33,641 bases of DNA from a virus, in UHGV virus genome UHGV-0275541; one strand, written 5' to 3'. A program made the position numbers and the translations under genes. This document shows positions 2,953-23,525 of the stretch, one piece after another; positions within the stretch are counted from its first letter, which is position 1, and every line of letters starts with the position of its first letter. A model generated the notes under the pieces. It ran no database searches, had not been told where the DNA came from, and worked only from the letters and a program-made list of their open reading frames with translations.

Positions 2953-3133
2953 ATATGTGTGTGATTATTTGTAATCAATCACGAGTAATAGAAATTTACA
3001 CATATATTTACTAATATTGACACTATGTTTATTGAAATAGTGTTTGCCCTCATTAATATCAATAATCGGTTCCGAGGAGATGACAGGGAAATAATGCATA
3101 TATCGGTTGTTTTATTTTTTCCGAGGAACCGTT

Positions 3134-3206
3134 GCCGATTTAACTTAGCAGACAAAGCAACTGACTTGTAATCACCGGGTCGCCAGTTCGATTCCGGTAA
3201 TCGGCA
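3134..3206 (+). tRNA. degenerate tRNA-like element (anticodon loop CTTGTAA suggests UGU/Thr); possibly a pseudo-tRNA
   Basis: 7-bp acceptor helix GCCGATT/AATCGGC, U8-A9, T-loop TTCGATT, but 2 mismatches in anticodon stem, 1 in T-stem, and D-loop lacks GG. Hand fold only. Confidence 0.4.
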
Positions 3207-3212
3207 CTATAT

Positions 3213-3287
<75 letters not shown>

Positions 3288-3381
3288 GAGAAACAAGCCT
3301 TATTGTATCGTGGCACTGGCGTATTTTTATTACGTGGGAGCAGGTTGTTTCGAAAAAGCATTCTGTTCTCTGGCTATGATT

Positions 3382-3414
3382 TGAGGCCAGGTTAGCCTCA
3401 GTGCTGATTTTTTT
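3382..3414 (+). terminator. terminator-like hairpin downstream of tRNAs
   Basis: TGAGGC/GCCTCA stem with 7-nt loop, then T-run 3407-3414 after a 5-nt spacer. Confidence 0.45.
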
Positions 3415-3644
3415 ACGGCAGCAGAATGGTGCATTGCTGGTGGAGATTTTGTATTTCCTGGCAGGGTCGGTGATGTATCATTCTGGTGTTGTAAATAACA
3501 CCATCGGGGCGCTCCTCAGGGCGAGGGTGGTTAAAAGAGTCGGTTTAGCGGGAAACCACAGTATTCATACAGGACGGAATACTTCGGGAGGCACCCGACG
3601 CCTCGATTTTATTACAATTAAAAAATTCATTCCTTGCATTGACC

Positions 3645-3671
3645 AACCGCCGTATCTGGCGGTTTTTTTTA
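3645..3671 (+). terminator. intrinsic terminator
   Basis: ACCGCC(3646-3651)/GGCGGT(3658-3663), loop GTATCT, T8 run. Confidence 0.75.
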
Positions 3672-3803
3672 TTCAGAATTTCGTTTCTTTATGGTTCGCT
3701 GCGGCGGGCCTTTTTCATATCTGCGCTTTACTCAACGTGTATTGAATCTGAATACATCACATAAAAGACATCGGCGGGTGCCTTTGACGGGGTGTTTTAT
3801 TAC

Positions 3804-3826
3804 GGGCCGCTGGTGGCCCTTTTTTA
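3804..3826 (+). terminator. intrinsic terminator immediately upstream of lysis cassette RBS
   Basis: GGGCC(3804-3808)/GGCCC(3815-3819), loop GCTGGT, T6; followed by AGGAG RBS of the first lysis gene. Confidence 0.7.
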
Positions 3827-3844
3827 TTTACAGGAGAAAAAAGT

Positions 3845-4237
3845 ATGTCTGAACCCTTATCCGGTTCCGGCACGGCTGCGGCGCTCGGTGGGGCGACGGT
3901 GTACGGGCTGTTTACCGGAACGGATTTCGGGATTGTGTTTGGTGCATTCGCAGGGGCGCTGTTTGTGGCCACGATACCACAGCAGATTTCTGTCTGGCGT
4001 GTGGCAGCGCATTTTCTGGTGTCGTTCATTGTTGGCGTGCTGGGGGCGGATGCGATGGCGTCTTACCTGGTTGAAAAACTGAATCTCCACAGCACATCTC
4101 TCGACGCGCTTTGCGCGGTACTGGTATCGGTGGTGTCGGTGAAGATTCTCTCATTCATCCACCAGCAGGATATCGCATCACTGGTGTCCGGTCTGTTCTC
4201 CCGCCTGCGGGGTGGAGGAGGCGGCAATGTTAAGTAA
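3845..4237 (+). CDS. putative holin (multi-TM membrane protein, first gene of lysis cassette)
   Basis: 130 aa; AGGAG RBS 8 nt upstream; Gly/Ala-rich hydrophobic segments consistent with 3-4 TM helices; sits directly upstream of the endolysin. Confidence 0.55.
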   Translation: MSEPLSGSGTAAALGGATVYGLFTGTDFGIVFGAFAGALFVATIPQQISVWRVAAHFLVSFIVGVLGADAMASYLVEKLNLHSTSLDALCAVLVSVVSVKILSFIHQQDIASLVSGLFSRLRGGGGGNVK

Positions 4238-4505
4238 CCTTCCCGGATTACTGAATGTGGTGTTAAGCACGGTTATCGTGCTGACGCTCTTTTTTTATCG
4301 TCGTGGTGAGTCGAGACATAAACCGCTGATGTCGTGGCTGGCCTGGCTGCTGATGCTGCTTTATGCCTTTGCGCCGCTTTGTTATCTGTGTGGTCGCTTT
4401 CCACCCGGTAACTGGCTGGTCGTCCTGATTAACCTGGTGTTCTGCGTACTGGTGATACGAGCACGCGGGAACGTATCAAAAATCCTTGTATTACGAAGGC
4501 GCTGA
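4227..4505 (+). CDS. small membrane protein of lysis cassette (second holin/antiholin-like)
   Basis: 92 aa from ATG 4227 preceded by GGAGGAGG; about three hydrophobic helices, basic C-terminus (VLRRR); overlaps holin stop and ends 2 nt before endolysin start. Confidence 0.5.
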   Translation: MLSNLPGLLNVVLSTVIVLTLFFYRRGESRHKPLMSWLAWLLMLLYAFAPLCYLCGRFPPGNWLVVLINLVFCVLVIRARGNVSKILVLRRR

Positions 4506-4506
4506 T

Positions 4507-5052
4507 ATGAAGTCGAAAGATGAAATTTTTGACGAAATTCTGGGAAAAGAGGGCGGTTACGTCAATCACCCGGATGATAAAGGTGGTCCGACTAAATGGG
4601 GCATCACTGAAAAAGTTGCCCGTGCACACGGTTATCAGGGCGATATGCGTGACCTGACGCGTGGGCAGGCGCTGGAAATACTCGAGGCGGACTACTGGTA
4701 CGGACCACGATTCGACCAGGTTGAGGACCTGTCTCCTGATATTGCCGCAGAGTTGTGCGATACGGGCGTGAACATGGGGCCAACTGTGGCGTCCAGAATG
4801 CTTCAGCGCTGGCTGAACGTTTTCAACCTGCGCGGGAAACTCTATCCGGATATGGATGCTGATGGACGCATCGGGCCGCGTACTCTTAATGCATTACGGG
4901 CATATCTGAAAAATCGCAGCAGGGATGGTGAACTGGTACTGGTGAAAGCCCTGAACTGTACGCAGGGCGAGCGTTATCTGGAGCTGGCAGAGAAACGCGA
5001 GGCCAATGAGTCGTTTGTCTATGGCTGGATGAAAGAGCGCGTGGTGGTTTAA
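4507..5052 (+). CDS. endolysin, glycoside hydrolase family 108 N-domain with C-terminal peptidoglycan-binding domain
   Basis: 181 aa from ATG 4507 (GAAGG RBS); N-terminal motif EGGYVNHPDDKGGPTKWGIT is the GH108 signature as I recall it; C-terminal half resembles a PG-binding module. Confidence 0.8.
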   Translation: MKSKDEIFDEILGKEGGYVNHPDDKGGPTKWGITEKVARAHGYQGDMRDLTRGQALEILEADYWYGPRFDQVEDLSPDIAAELCDTGVNMGPTVASRMLQRWLNVFNLRGKLYPDMDADGRIGPRTLNALRAYLKNRSRDGELVLVKALNCTQGERYLELAEKREANESFVYGWMKERVVV

Positions 5053-5148
5053 AAACTGACACTGAAGTGCTGAACACCCTCAACTCATGCAGGCTCTTTT
5101 CTGGGGCTACGATGAGCGAAAGTAAGGGGCATAGCATCAGATAGCAAA

Positions 5149-5179
5149 AACCCCGGCTGCGGTAACAGTCCGGGGTTTT
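5149..5179 (+). terminator. intrinsic terminator-like hairpin (copy A of repeated hairpin-RBS module)
   Basis: AACCCCGGCTG / CAG(T)CCGGGGTT stem with a bulge, loop CGGTAA, followed by TTTTCTGTTTCTG. Confidence 0.7.
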
Positions 5180-5212
5180 CTGTTTCTGGCCCTGGGTAAG
5201 GCAAAGGAGAAC

Positions 5213-5320
5213 ATGAGGAAGTATAAACTAATTCTGTTGAGGTTGACTATGAAAAACGGCCTTGAATTGAAAGCGTCTGTAACTGATGACATCAGCAGAG
5301 CGGTGGCTTTTGCCATTTAA
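5213..5320 (+). CDS. small ORF (35 aa) behind conserved AAGGAGA RBS; coding status uncertain
   Basis: ATG 5213 placed 6 nt after AAGGAGA; encodes MRKYKLILLRLTMKNGLELKASVTDDISRAVAFAI; below the ORF-track size cutoff. Confidence 0.3.
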   Translation: MRKYKLILLRLTMKNGLELKASVTDDISRAVAFAI

Positions 5321-5413
5321 GTGGGTGGCGGTCGGTATCGCTGTGTCTCCGATGCTGTATGGGATGGCAAAATTGATCATTGCTGTGAAATCGTAAGTGG
5401 GGCAGGGGTAAAT

Positions 5414-5548
5414 ATGTCAGATAGCATTATAAAACTGGCGCGAATTCTCTGTGTGGTTGTTGGCCTTTCATTTTCAGCAATGTTGGTTGCCATTTTCATT
5501 TCCACCGCCTGGCGAGTATTGAGCTTATCCGGATTGATTGGTGGATAG
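5414..5548 (+). CDS. small single-TM membrane protein (44 aa)
   Basis: ATG 5414 after GGCAGGGG; hydrophobic core ILCVVVGLSFSAMLVAIFISTAW. The longer ORF from 5321 has no RBS support. Confidence 0.35.
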   Translation: MSDSIIKLARILCVVVGLSFSAMLVAIFISTAWRVLSLSGLIGG

Positions 5549-5552
5549 TGAG

Positions 5553-5735
5553 ATGAAGCGAAAACACTGGACACACAGAATGCCGCGAACGGCGGCGAAA
5601 TGGGCACTGGTAGCGATACTGGTGCCTTTTTTCCTGGTGGGATGCGTTAGCCTGGATAAGGCGCGCCAGCTTTTCGATACAGCTTCTCAGGTCTGTGAAA
5701 TTGTCGACGGTGTTCGGCAGTGTATGCAGAACTGA
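5553..5735 (+). CDS. small lipoprotein (candidate o-spanin or superinfection-exclusion lipoprotein)
   Basis: 60 aa from ATG 5553; signal peptide with basic n-region, hydrophobic core ALVAILVPFFLV and lipobox LVGC; short mature part with 3 further Cys. Confidence 0.5.
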   Translation: MKRKHWTHRMPRTAAKWALVAILVPFFLVGCVSLDKARQLFDTASQVCEIVDGVRQCMQN

Positions 5736-5908
5736 TCGCCTGTAAGAGCAGAATATTTTGCTGAAAAATGAAGGATGCGCCTGCGTCCGGAAAGCATGAA
5801 ATTCTGCTGCGTGTGCCAATTTTATCTTATTCATTCTAAATCTTGCCGAATCAAGATGAATTTTGATCAACTGCCTGGCGGCAAGGGGCATTAAAACAGG
5901 AGAAAATT

Positions 5909-6016
5909 ATGTGGAAACCTACAGGTGACGAGTTAATCACCGCGTTGATTGACGGCAAGCCACAATACTTACGCATTGAAATGAGTGGTCAGCATGCTCG
6001 TTTGATTCGTGAGTAA
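5909..6016 (+). CDS. small ORF (35 aa) with strong RBS; coding status uncertain
   Basis: ACAGGAGAAAATT-ATG context; MWKPTGDELITALIDGKPQYLRIEMSGQHARLIRE; lies in the gap between lysis and packaging genes. Confidence 0.3.
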   Translation: MWKPTGDELITALIDGKPQYLRIEMSGQHARLIRE

Positions 6017-6160
6017 CAGGCATTACAGCAGCCCTTCAGTGTGAGGGGCTGCGATAATGCCAAAGCTCGTTATCAGCACCCGCCGCGCACCCAGCGCACT
6101 GGCCGATAGCGGGCTTTTTTATGGATAACTGAAGCAGGAGAAAGAGCAGGGCGGTGACTG

Positions 6161-7252
6161 ATGAAAGAGTCGGACTGGAAAATCATAAGACACCGACTGG
6201 AAACCGGGGATGCCTCCGCCAGAGAATTGGGCAAGGAGTATGGAGTCAGTCATACAACGATAAATAACAGAGCCAGAAAGGAAGGCTGGAAAAAGCCTGG
6301 AAATAAAGTTTCCACTAAAAAGGTTTCCACACGAAAAGTGGAAAGTGGAAACTCGGAAACTGACAACTCGCCACCTCCCCAAAGAACAGGCGGGCACAAA
6401 TCAAAAAATACCAGATTCGCCCCCTCATCTGATGATACTGATATCCCTTTTAACCCCGATGAATTCGGCATTTCTGACCAGCAGGCTAAGTTTGCGATGC
6501 TTGTTGCTCAAGGGAAAAAGCCGACAGAGGCATACCGACTGGCTGGGTATGAAGGGGAAGGAAACACTGCATGGGTAGCAGCCTCTCGTTTGTACAGGAA
6601 TGATAAGGTTTTTCGTGCTATCAGCTACTTCCGCAATCAGTACCAGAAACGCTATACCGCAGACCTGGATTTACTGGTGAGCCAGTTGATGGCTATTGTC
6701 CAGGCCGACCCCAATCAGTTGGCACAATTTCGCCGTGTTAACTGCCGTTATTGCTGGGGCGAGAATCATCTCTACCAGTGGCGTGATATTGCAGAATTCG
6801 ATAAGGCAGCGGCACAGGCCTCCAGAGATGGCAAACCCGAGCCGGAATATGGAGGCCTCGGCTTTGTTGATAACGCCATACCCAATCCGGACTGCCCGAA
6901 GTGCTGCGGTGAGGGAACGGGACAGCTTTATATGGCTGATACCACTCTGCTTGATGGGGATGCGCGGCAATTATATGCAGGGGCAAAGCTCGGGAAATTT
7001 GGTGTTGAGATCCTGCTGGAGGATAAGGCTGCCGCCCGGCGTGAACTTATCAAGCTGATAATGGCGACGAAAGGAAGTTCTGCTGGTGGTGCAACTGACA
7101 GTCGCAATGATCTGGAGCTTGAAGGACTGAGGCTTCGCAACGAAAAGCTGCGCACTGAGATTGAAAACCTCAAAAAAGGCGTGGGTGGTGAGAATAACGA
7201 AATAATTATCCACAACTCTCTGCCGATGCCGGGAGTGGATAATGTCGATTGA
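6161..7252 (+). CDS. terminase small subunit (N-terminal HTH, central small-terminase-like region, CxxC...CxxCC zinc-ribbon-like motif)
   Basis: 363 aa; N-terminal HTH-like SARELGKEYGVSHTTINNRARKEGWKK; central FGISDQQAKFAMLVAQGKKPTEAYRLAGY resembles small-terminase family; CRYC and CPKCC motifs; overlaps the large terminase start. Confidence 0.65.
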   Translation: MKESDWKIIRHRLETGDASARELGKEYGVSHTTINNRARKEGWKKPGNKVSTKKVSTRKVESGNSETDNSPPPQRTGGHKSKNTRFAPSSDDTDIPFNPDEFGISDQQAKFAMLVAQGKKPTEAYRLAGYEGEGNTAWVAASRLYRNDKVFRAISYFRNQYQKRYTADLDLLVSQLMAIVQADPNQLAQFRRVNCRYCWGENHLYQWRDIAEFDKAAAQASRDGKPEPEYGGLGFVDNAIPNPDCPKCCGEGTGQLYMADTTLLDGDARQLYAGAKLGKFGVEILLEDKAAARRELIKLIMATKGSSAGGATDSRNDLELEGLRLRNEKLRTEIENLKKGVGGENNEIIIHNSLPMPGVDNVD

Positions 7253-8570
7253 AATCTACCCCCCAAAACCTCATGAGGGGCAAATAGCTGCATGGACGGC
7301 GGCAATAGAGGAACGCTTCCACGCGGTATGCTGTGGTCGTCGCTGGGGTAAAACGGTGATGCTGGTAAACATCGCTACCAGTTTCGCGACGCGGAAATTT
7401 GCCGTTCCTACCACCGGGCAGCTTATCGCGGGTAGGGTGGGGATTTTTACCGCACAATACCGCCAGTACCAGGAAATCTGGGATGAAATTAGCGCCGTTC
7501 TGCAACCGTTGATCCTCAGTCAGTCAAAAAATGAAAAGCGCATCATTCTCCGGAACGGTGGCCGCATCGACTTCTGGGTGACGGACAACAACAAACTGGC
7601 CGGACGTGGGCGTAAATATCACGCTGTGCTGATTGATGAGGCCGCATTCACTAAATCGCCGGAAATGCTCGAGGAAATCTGGCCCCGAGCGATACGCCCG
7701 ACGCTTGTCGATTACCGCGGCTGTGCGTGGGTATTTTCCACACCAAACGGTATCGACGAGAGCAATTTTTTCTACGCGATATGCCACGATGAATCCCTGG
7801 GATTTGTTATGCACCATGCGCCAACTTCATCGAATCCGTATATTCCGAAAGAAGAACTGGAGGAAACGGAGAAGAAATCCGATCCGCGCGTCTGGCAGCA
7901 GGAATATCTTGCAGAGTTCGTAGACTGGTCCAAAGACGCGTTACTCGATGTCGATAAGCTGCTGGTGGACGGTCAACCAATTGAGATGCCGCCGTACTGC
8001 GACATGATTTTCGCAGTGATGGATACGGCGCTGAAAGGCGGGACCGAAAATGACGGTACTGGCGTGGTGTATTTCGCTTATGAGTCAACGTATTCGGACG
8101 AGCCAAAACTGACGATTATTGACTGGGATGTGACGCAAATTAAAGCGTCGTTGCTTCCTGAATATATCCCCGGCGTTTATGACAACCTCGAGCGCCTCGC
8201 GAAATTATGCCGTCCGCGTCTGGGCAGCCAGGGAATTTTTATGGAAGACGCCGCGATGGGGGCAATCCTCAACCAGAAGGCGGAAACCGAAGGCTGGGAT
8301 ATGACGCCGATTAAATCGGCACTGACCAGCAAAGGTAAAGACGAACGGGCGGTGATGGCATCCAGCTACCACTATCAGGGGATGTGCAAAATCGTCCGGG
8401 AGGCTTACGACAAGACCGTTTCATTCAAACGTACCACCGCAAACCACCTCATTAAACAAATCGCCGGGTTCCACCTGGCAGACAAAGACGCGCATAAACG
8501 TGCTGATGACCTTTTCGATTGTTATACCTATGGATTGATTATCGCGCACGGTAATTACGCGGCGTTGTAA
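7242..8570 (+). CDS. terminase large subunit
   Basis: 442 aa; Walker A-like CCGRRWGKT, Walker B-like HAVLIDEAAF; size and position typical of TerL. Confidence 0.85.
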   Translation: MSIEIYPPKPHEGQIAAWTAAIEERFHAVCCGRRWGKTVMLVNIATSFATRKFAVPTTGQLIAGRVGIFTAQYRQYQEIWDEISAVLQPLILSQSKNEKRIILRNGGRIDFWVTDNNKLAGRGRKYHAVLIDEAAFTKSPEMLEEIWPRAIRPTLVDYRGCAWVFSTPNGIDESNFFYAICHDESLGFVMHHAPTSSNPYIPKEELEETEKKSDPRVWQQEYLAEFVDWSKDALLDVDKLLVDGQPIEMPPYCDMIFAVMDTALKGGTENDGTGVVYFAYESTYSDEPKLTIIDWDVTQIKASLLPEYIPGVYDNLERLAKLCRPRLGSQGIFMEDAAMGAILNQKAETEGWDMTPIKSALTSKGKDERAVMASSYHYQGMCKIVREAYDKTVSFKRTTANHLIKQIAGFHLADKDAHKRADDLFDCYTYGLIIAHGNYAAL

Positions 8571-20629: not shown

Positions 20630-21298
20630 ATGTCACTTAATTACTTTGGACAAGCTTTCAAACTGGCGTTTGAAGTATCGCCCATTCTTTTAGTTGATGG
20701 CATAGCGTCGAAAATTCCCGGCGGGGTGATGCCGATTGCTGTTTTGACCGAAGGCCTAAGCATTGTGAACGGTCTGCTGCATGGCGAGATTCGTACACGC
20801 TCGATGGCGGCATTTACCCCGATGGCGGGGACAACGTTGGTTCAGCAGGATATTTGCAACCTGAATTTCTATAACCAGGTAACGGCAGCGAATGCGACCG
20901 TCAAGAAGCCTAACCGGGTAGTCATGCAGATGATCCGTCCGGCATCAACGGAGGACGGTGGCTACATCACTAAGGGGATGACATTCACGGCGCTGAAAAT
21001 GGCGCTCGATATGCATAACCAGTATGGCGGTTGTTACACCGTAATGACGCCATCTTTCATCTACACGCGCTGTCTGATGCGGTCGTTTATCGATACATCC
21101 GGTTTCTCTGAGCAGAACAAGCAGGTTCAGTACACCTGGCAGATTGAGTTTGAGCAACCATTGTCGTCTGTCGAACAAACGGTAAAAACGCTGGCGAGCG
21201 TTCTGGATAAATTTGATAAAGGGATGCCGTCAGACGGGGCGCTATCGTGGTCAGGTATTAAGAACCAGGTCGTGCAGGAGTTTGGTTTTGGCTTATGA
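20630..21298 (+). CDS. phage tail/baseplate-region hypothetical protein
   Basis: 222 aa; ATG 20630 four nt after the tape measure stop; overlaps next start. Confidence 0.55.
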   Translation: MSLNYFGQAFKLAFEVSPILLVDGIASKIPGGVMPIAVLTEGLSIVNGLLHGEIRTRSMAAFTPMAGTTLVQQDICNLNFYNQVTAANATVKKPNRVVMQMIRPASTEDGGYITKGMTFTALKMALDMHNQYGGCYTVMTPSFIYTRCLMRSFIDTSGFSEQNKQVQYTWQIEFEQPLSSVEQTVKTLASVLDKFDKGMPSDGALSWSGIKNQVVQEFGFGL

Positions 21299-23321: not shown

Positions 23322-23356
23322 AAGCCCCGGCTGCTGGAACAGTTCGGGGCTTTTTG
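23322..23356 (+). terminator. intrinsic terminator-like hairpin (copy B of repeated hairpin-RBS module)
   Basis: GCCCCGGCTG / CAG(TT)CGGGGC stem, loop CTGGAA, followed by TTTTTGTTTCTG; about 80% identical to 5149-5215 over about 70 bp. Confidence 0.65.
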
Positions 23357-23387
23357 TTTCTGACCTTGAATAAGGCAAGGAGAAGTC

Positions 23388-23525
23388 GTGTTTGATTTTA
23401 GCAAACTGATTCGGGAGATTCGAGTTATGGCTGAAAAATTATCCACCTGGAAGTTTTTGCTTATTTGGTTGGTCTTTCTGATTCTGGCGTCTGGTTATTT
23501 TGTTGGCCAGATCCGATGGTGGTGA
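23388..23525 (+). CDS. small ORF (45 aa, GTG start) encoding a hydrophobic peptide; coding status uncertain
   Basis: GTG 23388 placed after the conserved AAGGAGAAG RBS of module copy B; encodes ...KFLLIWLVFLILASGYFVGQIRWW. Confidence 0.3.
   Translation: MFDFSKLIREIRVMAEKLSTWKFLLIWLVFLILASGYFVGQIRWW

Follow-up and report, generated by a model that had tools for sequence, protein, structure and literature searches.

To our knowledge, the disruptin is the only alternative to spanins that has been described for the outer-membrane step of phage lysis. The disruptin of phage phiKT, gp28, is made without a signal sequence and takes effect once the holin has released it. Colicin lysis proteins (bacteriocin release proteins), which permeabilise the bacterial envelope, are tiny lipoproteins with about 28-33 mature residues. 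A preprint presents gp28 as a cationic antimicrobial peptide, a small single protein with which a phage lacking spanins is proposed to accomplish the outer-membrane step (bioRxiv 10.1101/515445). About 13% of the genomes surveyed by Kongari et al. 2018 (PMC6139136) are without spanins, and how such phages cross the outer membrane is an open question. Here we describe a cluster of three small genes, called A, B and C, which follows the endolysin gene in UHGV virus genome UHGV-0275541, a stretch of 33,641 nucleotides (nt) referred to as the window. Gene C encodes a small lipoprotein at the position where a spanin would be expected, and its family offers a tractable case in Escherichia coli. We lean towards the view that C performs the outer-membrane step of lysis without any i-spanin (inner-membrane spanin subunit) of phage origin.

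The window represents the late region of a phiP27-like enterobacterial prophage. Its lysis cassette and the adjoining small genes, with their transmembrane (TM) segments, lengths in amino acids (aa), ribosome-binding site (RBS) and best family matches (E-values in brackets), are as follows:

3845-4237, + strand: holin 1, 130 aa, three TM segments, opens the lysis cassette; PF16931 Phage_holin_8 (1e-21), phrog_198 holin (2e-41)
4227-4505, + strand: holin 2, 92 aa, three TM segments; PF05449 Phage_holin_3_7 (8e-21), phrog_217 (4e-35)
4507-5052, + strand: endolysin, 181 aa, GH108 muramidase with PG_binding_3; PF05838 (1e-26), PF09374 (9e-27), phrog_315 (1e-53)
5146-5187, + strand: intrinsic-terminator-like hairpin AAAAACCCCGGCTG..CAGTCCGGGGTTTT with T-rich tail, followed by the RBS AAGGAG of gene A
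5213-5396, + strand: gene A, frameshifted in the window; phrog_1115; the intact form is a 60-aa tail-anchored membrane protein
5414-5548, + strand: gene B, 44-aa single-TM protein; phrog_4906 (2e-19, positions 1-43)
5553-5735, + strand: gene C, 60-aa lipoprotein precursor; phrog_7528 (4e-38, residues 1-60 of 60)
5602-5633, + strand: terminator-like hairpin inside gene C; stem of 10-11 bp, GCGA tetraloop and TTTTTT; codons 17-27, in the h-region

The original prediction, made from the sequence alone, had listed here a 35-aa open reading frame (ORF), a 44-aa single-TM ORF and a 60-aa lipoprotein. All three ORFs are present and each stands above chance by its PHROG match (for A, 3e-20 and 5e-14 for its two halves). 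The 44-aa ORF was correctly described as a single-TM protein; the 35-aa ORF is no gene of its own, being a frameshift fragment of gene A. A purine-rich, Shine-Dalgarno-like sequence precedes each of the three. The gene order, with two holins and the endolysin followed by three independent small genes, would correspond to the tail end of a late operon, in which A and B may be accessory riders in a slot between the endolysin and an outer-membrane gene.

The C precursor consists of a basic n-region, (K/R)(K/R)HWTHRxPR, an h-region, ALVAILVPF(L/F) (ALVAILVPFF in the window), the lipobox LVGC and a short mature part; Met10 at 5580 provides an alternative start. The codon of the lipobox Cys31 lies at 5643-5645. 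Residues +2/+3 are Val-Ser, and in the absence of Asp as a retention signal C is predicted to be sorted to the outer membrane by Lol. The anticipated composition of the mature part was borne out: it has 30 residues and three cysteines (Cys31, Cys48 and Cys57, the latter two forming C-x8-C), and it contains no proline at all. The lack of proline is nevertheless a weak argument against a spanin, as the T4 o-spanin (outer-membrane spanin subunit) family is not proline-rich either (PMC6139136). In the family alignment Cys31 and Cys48 are invariant, and Cys57 nearly so. The net charge of the mature part ranges from -1 (window) to +2 (metagenome locus L036), and its hydrophobic moment is moderate (0.53 over 18 residues, equalled by 77 of 2000 shuffles). 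AlphaFold models C as a single continuous helix over residues 12-59. A fold search is not meaningful for such a 60-residue single helix.

The family phrog_7528 is labelled as being of unknown function, and C has no Pfam or NCBIfam match at E <= 1 and no PADLOC or PDB relative. A word-index protein search retrieved 145 clusters, all of them annotated as hypothetical or lipoprotein save for one LPP20 lipoprotein factor from a metagenome. The named members belong to Escherichia, Salmonella, Citrobacter, Cronobacter and Yersinia; profile searching adds Enterobacter. An exhaustive profile search of 1.84 billion representative proteins yielded 24 representatives at E <= 1e-3 and no relatives beyond them; the family is restricted to Enterobacterales. 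Among complete E. coli genomes, C is present in 304 of 5426 (about 5.6%), at 480 places in total and at up to seven per genome. A scan of a contig collection holding one genome per species gave three loci. The pairwise ratio of nonsynonymous to synonymous polymorphism (pN/pS) is 0.40 for the whole gene and 0.13 for the h-region and lipobox, indicating purifying selection on C across genera. The conservation in related prophages, on which the original prediction had been made to depend, holds for all three genes: C, B and intact A each form conserved families.

The gene has been overlooked in the annotation of three public phage records. In phiP27 it is unannotated (positions 3062-3250 of our locus L001, corresponding to 20673-20861 of phiP27), while L32 (20630-20785) is annotated in another frame. 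It is likewise unannotated in pPE4 (L002, 3362-3544) and in GER2 (L005, 3501-3668).

In architecture, C resembles the colicin lysis proteins (Lysis_col), but only in size and lipoprotein nature. It differs from them and from entericidin in having no Pfam match at E <= 1, in its C-x8-C motif and in being encoded in a phage cassette instead of a colicin operon. By analogy, C might for instance work by activating outer-membrane phospholipase A. The disruptin gp28 shares with C the proposed task in a spanin-less phage and the small size of a single protein. Unlike gp28, C carries a lipoprotein signal and would be lipid-anchored and exported beforehand, and it is nearly neutral.

The genomic context was compared in 45 loci with intact C, which comprise 20 distinct alleles from E. 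coli, Salmonella, Citrobacter, Cronobacter, Yersinia, Enterobacter, Lelliottia and a metagenome. In all 45, C lies 3' of an endolysin gene on the same strand. What stands between the two genes varies:

Y. enterocolitica: nothing; the start of C overlaps the endolysin stop (ATGA)
Enterobacter: nothing, 6-nt gap
Metagenome locus L036: nothing, 3-nt gap
Citrobacter: nothing, 15-nt gap
Lelliottia: nothing; the genes overlap
Window and many E. coli: A-B
E. coli, phiSTEC1575-Stx2k: A' (a diverged form of A)
pPE4, Salmonella and one E. coli: KilA-N protein

The modules found beside C vary as well:

Holins, at least three types: PF16931 with PF05449; PF05106; another in Lelliottia
Endolysins, three types: GH108; Peptidase_M15_4; CHAP-like
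Packaging modules, at least five: Terminase_4 with HNH; Nu1/GpA; DUF1441/GpA; Terminase_2/portal_3; Terminase_6

C is thus the third gene of a lysis module, tied to no one holin, endolysin or virion module. Because holins, endolysins and packaging modules all change, the constant partner of C should be the envelope and not a particular phage protein or receptor. The cassette occurs also in records deposited as complete phage genomes (phiP27, phiSTEC1575-Stx2k and pPE4). One of these, L002, is deposited as Actinobacillus phage vB_Apl-pPE4 yet is 89-96% identical to an E. coli prophage late region, and the host label looks odd.

The same survey bears on the idea that C is a regulator which sets the time of lysis, or shields the envelope up to the moment of triggering, by antiholin-like action or control of the endolysin. 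Lysis cassettes do contain small regulators, for example the Mu gp25 'releasin', and C is probably co-transcribed with holin and endolysin. We regard such a role as quite unlikely: the presence of at least three unrelated holin and three endolysin families beside C argues against a specific target, a 29-residue peptide sorted to the outer membrane cannot reach holins in the inner membrane, and regulators normally accompany spanins instead of excluding them.

Next to the endolysin, one would expect a pair of the lambda Rz/Rz1 type. C indeed resembles the o-spanin of this pair in several respects. It occupies the same slot, following the endolysin directly or after the same inserts (A-B or KilA-N), it has a lipobox with an outer-membrane signal (no Asp at +2), a short mature part and conserved periplasmic cysteines, and it is presumably expressed late. 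Unlike Rz1, it has no embedded, overlapping or adjacent i-spanin, nor one elsewhere in the complete phiP27 genome, it shows no similarity to Rz1 families in the libraries searched, and it is predicted to be helical, without proline, and too short to bridge the periplasm. A unimolecular spanin such as gp11 of T1 is, like C, the product of a single gene with an N-terminal lipobox in the lysis cassette. C lacks the C-terminal TM segment and the periplasmic domain of about 100 residues that characterise this class; it ends 29 residues after the lipidated cysteine, and its sole hydrophobic segment is the signal peptide. For want of both elements, it cannot connect the two membranes. C therefore belongs to no spanin class, having neither an i-spanin partner nor a C-terminal TM segment, and it is not disruptin-like.

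Spanin genes were sought at several levels. Neither a canonical Rz/Rz1 pair, nor another lipobox gene, nor a credible type II membrane ORF was found anywhere in the 33.6-kb window. No lambda-type Rz was detected in any intact-C locus when two lambda-family Rz proteins were used in tblastn, and the Rz and Rz1 families of Pfam (PF03245, PF06085) were missing among the called genes of these loci. A generic scan of up to 2.5 kb on either side of C in the 45 loci, which rests on simple hydropathy and lipobox rules, yielded neither a further lipobox ORF nor a credible type II membrane ORF. The type II matches near C were out-of-frame or over-extended artefacts, with the exception of a 153-aa protein with an N-terminal TM segment, encoded 5' of the holin in L036. 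As positive controls, the Rz proteins of PhiR5_2 and GER2 and the i-spanin of vB_YpM_39 were all recovered. In the complete genome of phiP27 (42.6 kb), lipobox ORFs are limited to C and one for a 275-aa lipoprotein in the early region, and there is no i-spanin candidate and no type II membrane ORF. The expectation that a lipoprotein occupies the spanin position here without any typical spanin thus stood up, and this lipoprotein is indeed the element of interest. The tables of Kongari et al. 2018 (PMC6139136), both those of spanins and the one of spanin-less genomes, do not list phiP27. Of 279 Stx phages, 277 carry the Rz pham, and the two Stx2e myovirus-like phages have the distinct holin and endolysin phams (Pinto et al. 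2021, PMC8136144). These counts agree with an absence of Rz from the phiP27-type phages in particular, a point on which the paper is not explicit.

It might still be argued that C is a genuine o-spanin with an unrecognised partner, either a non-canonical phage protein or a host protein spanning the envelope, and that lysis ends with fusion of the spanin type. The o-spanin-like features of C listed above speak for this, as do the 31 'spanin-less' genomes which have a lipoprotein gene without a linked i-spanin and in which other topologies were left unsearched (Kongari et al., PMC6139136), and the 153-aa protein of L036 would be one conceivable partner. We consider this explanation unlikely. No candidate partner is common to the C loci, whose constant companions are a holin and an endolysin of changing families; phiP27 has no type II membrane ORF, and A and B are missing from many C loci. 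Moreover, a 29-residue peptide would need a partner covering nearly the whole periplasm.

The neighbouring small genes were considered as partners in turn. B and C had been suggested to form an atypical pair of i- and o-spanin. This suggestion was rejected, as the two genes are independent modules: B accompanies a canonical Rz in the contexts inspected, and B is missing beside C in Yersinia, Citrobacter, Enterobacter, Lelliottia, Salmonella and phiP27. Gene A as a non-canonical i-spanin with a C-terminal TM segment was also dismissed, being absent from many C loci, located beside Rz elsewhere, and too short.

Further contextual evidence comes from natural swaps between C and spanins. The order in PhiR5_2 is R, A, B, Rz; its DNA homology with the window covers 5171-5512 (A and most of B). 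PhiR5_2 and Stx phages share A-B followed by Rz, and in the PhiR5_2 alignment the similarity is lost where Rz and C start. The same exchange is seen in Yersinia. Phage vB_YpM_39 and a Y. enterocolitica prophage share gene order and an endolysin with 72% DNA identity, and their homology stops exactly at the endolysin stop. Beyond this point, vB_YpM_39 (L048, 3034-3436) encodes, after its GH108 endolysin, an overlapped pair of a 92-aa i-spanin with N-terminal TM segment and a 69-aa o-spanin with the lipobox ITSC, while the Y. enterocolitica prophage has C. In the vB_YpM_39 record the i-spanin is annotated merely as a hypothetical protein, and the o-spanin is unannotated.

Only one lineage contains both Rz and C. 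In GER2 the order is S, R, A', Rz, followed by a copy of C with three in-frame stops. This dead GER2-type C (at least 99% identity, unannotated) recurs in 43 complete genomes of E. coli, O104:H4 outbreak strains among them. In the loci sampled, intact C and spanins are therefore mutually exclusive.

The GER2 remnant may also be read in another way, namely that C is an accessory moron: a conversion or exclusion lipoprotein similar to Bor, Cor or Llp, or a late receptor mask shielding the progeny from cell debris. The remnant lies after Rz, at the site of bor-type genes, A and B in the same slot look accessory, and the tail region holds another A-like cassette. Conversion or exclusion is a frequent role of small outer-membrane lipoproteins in prophages, and C, too, is a small lipoprotein of enterobacterial prophages with a predicted outer-membrane signal. 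The Cor and Llp genes show linkage to tail or receptor genes, and their products are made in the lysogen or soon after infection. C differs from these proteins on several counts. It has no homology to Bor, Cor or defence families in the libraries searched (Lambda_Bor of Pfam gives no match at E <= 1) and is coupled to holin and endolysin; in several genera its start overlaps or abuts the endolysin stop. A consensus scan found no promoter-like site 5' of A, B or C on the + strand. The gene follows the lysis module while tail and receptor modules differ among loci, and it decays where spanins are present. Furthermore, the terminator-like hairpin inside the gene would hinder expression in a lysogen. 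A moron role is hence improbable in our view, and the earlier suggestion of a Cor-like exclusion lipoprotein, for which Pfam, NCBIfam and PADLOC gave no match, found no support.

The hairpin proper lies at 5602-5627 and is followed by TTTTTT in the consensus scan; its predicted stability is -18.4 kcal/mol (z-score, z, of -3.8). It is predicted at the same position of C in 20 of 20 distinct alleles, with the loop GCGA or GCAA in most of them. In the Enterobacter locus L035 there is one stem mismatch and a different loop, and the stability is no better than that of shuffles (z -0.2). The stem codons are near-frozen, including the rare Ile codon ATA. Between the window and L036, codons capable of synonymous change are identical at 7 of 7 sites in the stem, compared with 7 of 23 outside it (Fisher p = 0.002); over 28 diverse allele pairs, same and different synonymous codons number 151:31 in the stem and 488:334 elsewhere. 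It appears, then, that the conservation of the C signal peptide is at least partly a constraint at the nucleotide level. We had considered a special role of the conserved signal peptide, as in the stable signal peptides of bacteriocin release proteins, and set it aside because synonymous sites are also conserved, pointing to the hairpin. It is plausible that the hairpin is an intrinsic terminator which lets only Q-antiterminated polymerase proceed to full-length C; it could serve as a fail-safe dependent on Q, or as an RNA element of another kind. A terminator at this place would suit a harmful lysis protein and not a gene meant for expression in the lysogen.

From these observations, the following course of events can be proposed. 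C would be made late, alongside holin and endolysin, with the internal hairpin restricting its full-length expression to Q-antiterminated late transcription. It would be exported by the Sec pathway, lipidated at Cys31 and carried by the Lol system to the outer membrane, where it would sit in the inner leaflet. After clearance of the peptidoglycan by the endolysin, the 29-residue amphipathic and probably disulfide-bonded helix would destabilise this membrane. Whether C acted singly, as an oligomer or by way of a host envelope protein, it would replace the Rz/Rz1 spanin complex without an inner-membrane partner from the phage. A role in outer-membrane lysis is the best supported one because of the position of the gene, its coupling to the endolysin, its independence of any partner and of the virion module, the exclusion of spanins and the equivalence of the slot. 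More tentatively, C may even represent a fourth class of phage outer-membrane lysis proteins beside two-component spanins, unimolecular spanins and the disruptin, i.e. a lipid-anchored helix of about 30 residues which breaches or loosens the membrane from its inner leaflet with no bridge to the inner membrane, guarded by a terminator and forming part of a widespread module that includes phiP27.

Several points weigh against an outer-membrane lysis function. For all family members, what is known of C function comes from sequence and context. A mature part of about 30 residues with a net charge of -1 to +2 can neither span the periplasm nor act as a cationic disruptin, and the AlphaFold model is of moderate confidence only (mean pLDDT 70). 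The C loci are phylogenetically clustered, with many near-identical prophages, as reflected in only 19 distinct alleles for 44 of the loci. The related cassette of SerU-LTIIb, a partial record, has neither C nor an annotated spanin, and the position of the decayed C of GER2 after Rz, typical of morons such as bor, means that C can leave the slot adjacent to the endolysin. Finally, some phages appear to manage without an outer-membrane gene (PMC6139136), and the absence of spanins alone assigns C no role.

Should C nevertheless act in this way, envelope biology and engineered lysis would both have reason to take an interest in a minimal lipopeptide able to destabilise the outer membrane from within. 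The 183-bp gene, its presence in about one in eighteen complete E. coli genomes and the natural spanin-swapped relatives are practical assets. The cassette adjoins stx2e in phiP27-type phages, and the outer-membrane step therefore bears on toxin release: the 130-aa putative holin (WP_032083190) encoded 3' of stx2e is reported to be required for enrofloxacin-induced release of Stx2e (PMC12571312). The cloning primer ATGTCTGAACCCTTGTCCGG given in that report encodes MSEPLS, which is the N-terminus of holin 1 of the window.

Genes A and B are conserved accessory small membrane proteins, for neither of which Pfam, NCBIfam or PADLOC gave a match. Gene B was detected by tblastn in 276 phage records, mostly Stx1a- and Stx2a-converting phages. 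In every inspected or annotated context it lies immediately 5' of a gene annotated as Rz or 'phage endopeptidase'. This constant position just before a canonical Rz, in all contexts inspected, shows that B is not an i-spanin. Together with A, it belongs to a variable slot between the endolysin and the outer-membrane gene, which in other phages holds a KilA-N protein. In Escherichia phage SerU-LTIIb (L047, 5219-6368), the post-endolysin slot is filled by eltIIbA and eltIIbB, which encode the type II heat-labile enterotoxin LT-IIb.

Gene A is broken in the window. The 35-aa ORF (5213-5320) is its N-terminal half and aligns to positions 8-42 of the 67-position phrog_1115 profile (3e-20), while an overlapping ORF in the +1 frame (5286-5396) aligns to positions 42-67 (5e-14). 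Alignment with three E. coli prophages and PhiR5_2 shows that one extra T (ATT -> ATTT) in the run 5316-5318 splits the gene, with the C-terminal TM half in the +1 frame from 5319 and the stop at 5394-5396. Without the extra T, the gene encodes a basic N-terminal part and a C-terminal transmembrane helix. An intact homologue matches phrog_1115 at 1e-40, as against the two halves in two frames in the window, and RefSeq annotates an intact 183-nt gene in homologous E. coli prophages. The distribution of A is narrower than that of B (14 phage records, counting the A' form, which ends in ..RWW, of GER2 and phiSTEC1575-Stx2k).

All 26 other A-bearing loci fetched have an intact gene A, and the frameshifted allele is found in none of them. 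Among 27 loci the extra T occurs in the window alone and must therefore be either a private mutation or a sequencing error in a homopolymer, and no case of recoding; a programmed +1 frameshift at AUU-UAA-G was ruled out for the same reason. A GTG-started 75-aa ORF (5321-5548) which contains B is in frame with the 35-aa ORF. Readthrough fusion of these same-frame ORFs, separated by a lone TAA (5318-5320), was judged coincidental because the C-terminal half of the A family sits in the other frame.

Together with the pseudogenised C of GER2-type phages, the frameshifted A might indicate that the whole cluster is evolutionary debris in a decaying prophage. This is extremely unlikely: B and C are intact in the window, C is under selection across genera, A is intact in all 26 other loci that have it, and the cassette is carried by the three phage records deposited as complete. 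The selection analysis in particular largely refutes it.

The spacer of 160 nt between the endolysin and gene A holds the strong hairpin with a T-rich tail listed above (5146-5187), with a predicted stability of -23 kcal/mol (z -3.5). It is kept 5' of the A or A' genes of PhiR5_2, GER2 and phiSTEC1575, where the stems differ in sequence and the pairing is retained. A second copy of the hairpin with its RBS lies in the tail-gene region (23322-23386), directly 5' of a 45-aa tail-anchored membrane ORF (GTG start, 23388-23525, ending ..GQIRWW, phrog_6632). The unit of hairpin, RBS and tail-anchored ORF looks like a repeated mini-cassette. A-type genes with a hairpin and RBS of their own fit such a moron-like mini-cassette better than a dedicated lysis function.

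Terminator-like sites are enriched in this part of the window, with 13 in 3300-6300 against 3.2 expected from shuffles. Several such hairpins with T-runs lie between the tRNA-like genes and the first holin, in 3381-3819 (for example 3645-3664, 3693-3710 and 3804-3819). The two tRNA-like genes themselves (3134-3287) score 45.9 and 65.6 bits with Rfam; ARAGORN reports only tRNA-Gly(tcc) at 3213-3287.

Genes for NinB, an HNH endonuclease, a Q-like antiterminator and a DNA methyltransferase lie 5' of the lysis cassette. The features on its 3' side are:

5909-6016, + strand: conserved 35-aa ORF, phrog_8025 (1e-21), strong RBS, just 5' of the small terminase subunit, at the end of the region
6161-7252: small terminase subunit, downstream of the 35-aa phrog_8025 ORF
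7242-8570: ORF in the position of the large terminase, downstream of the small subunit

The phrog_8025 ORF matches in position gp41 as annotated in pPE4, and it is probably not part of the lysis function. An antisense ORF of 131 aa at 5496-5891 has no family match and was taken as spurious.

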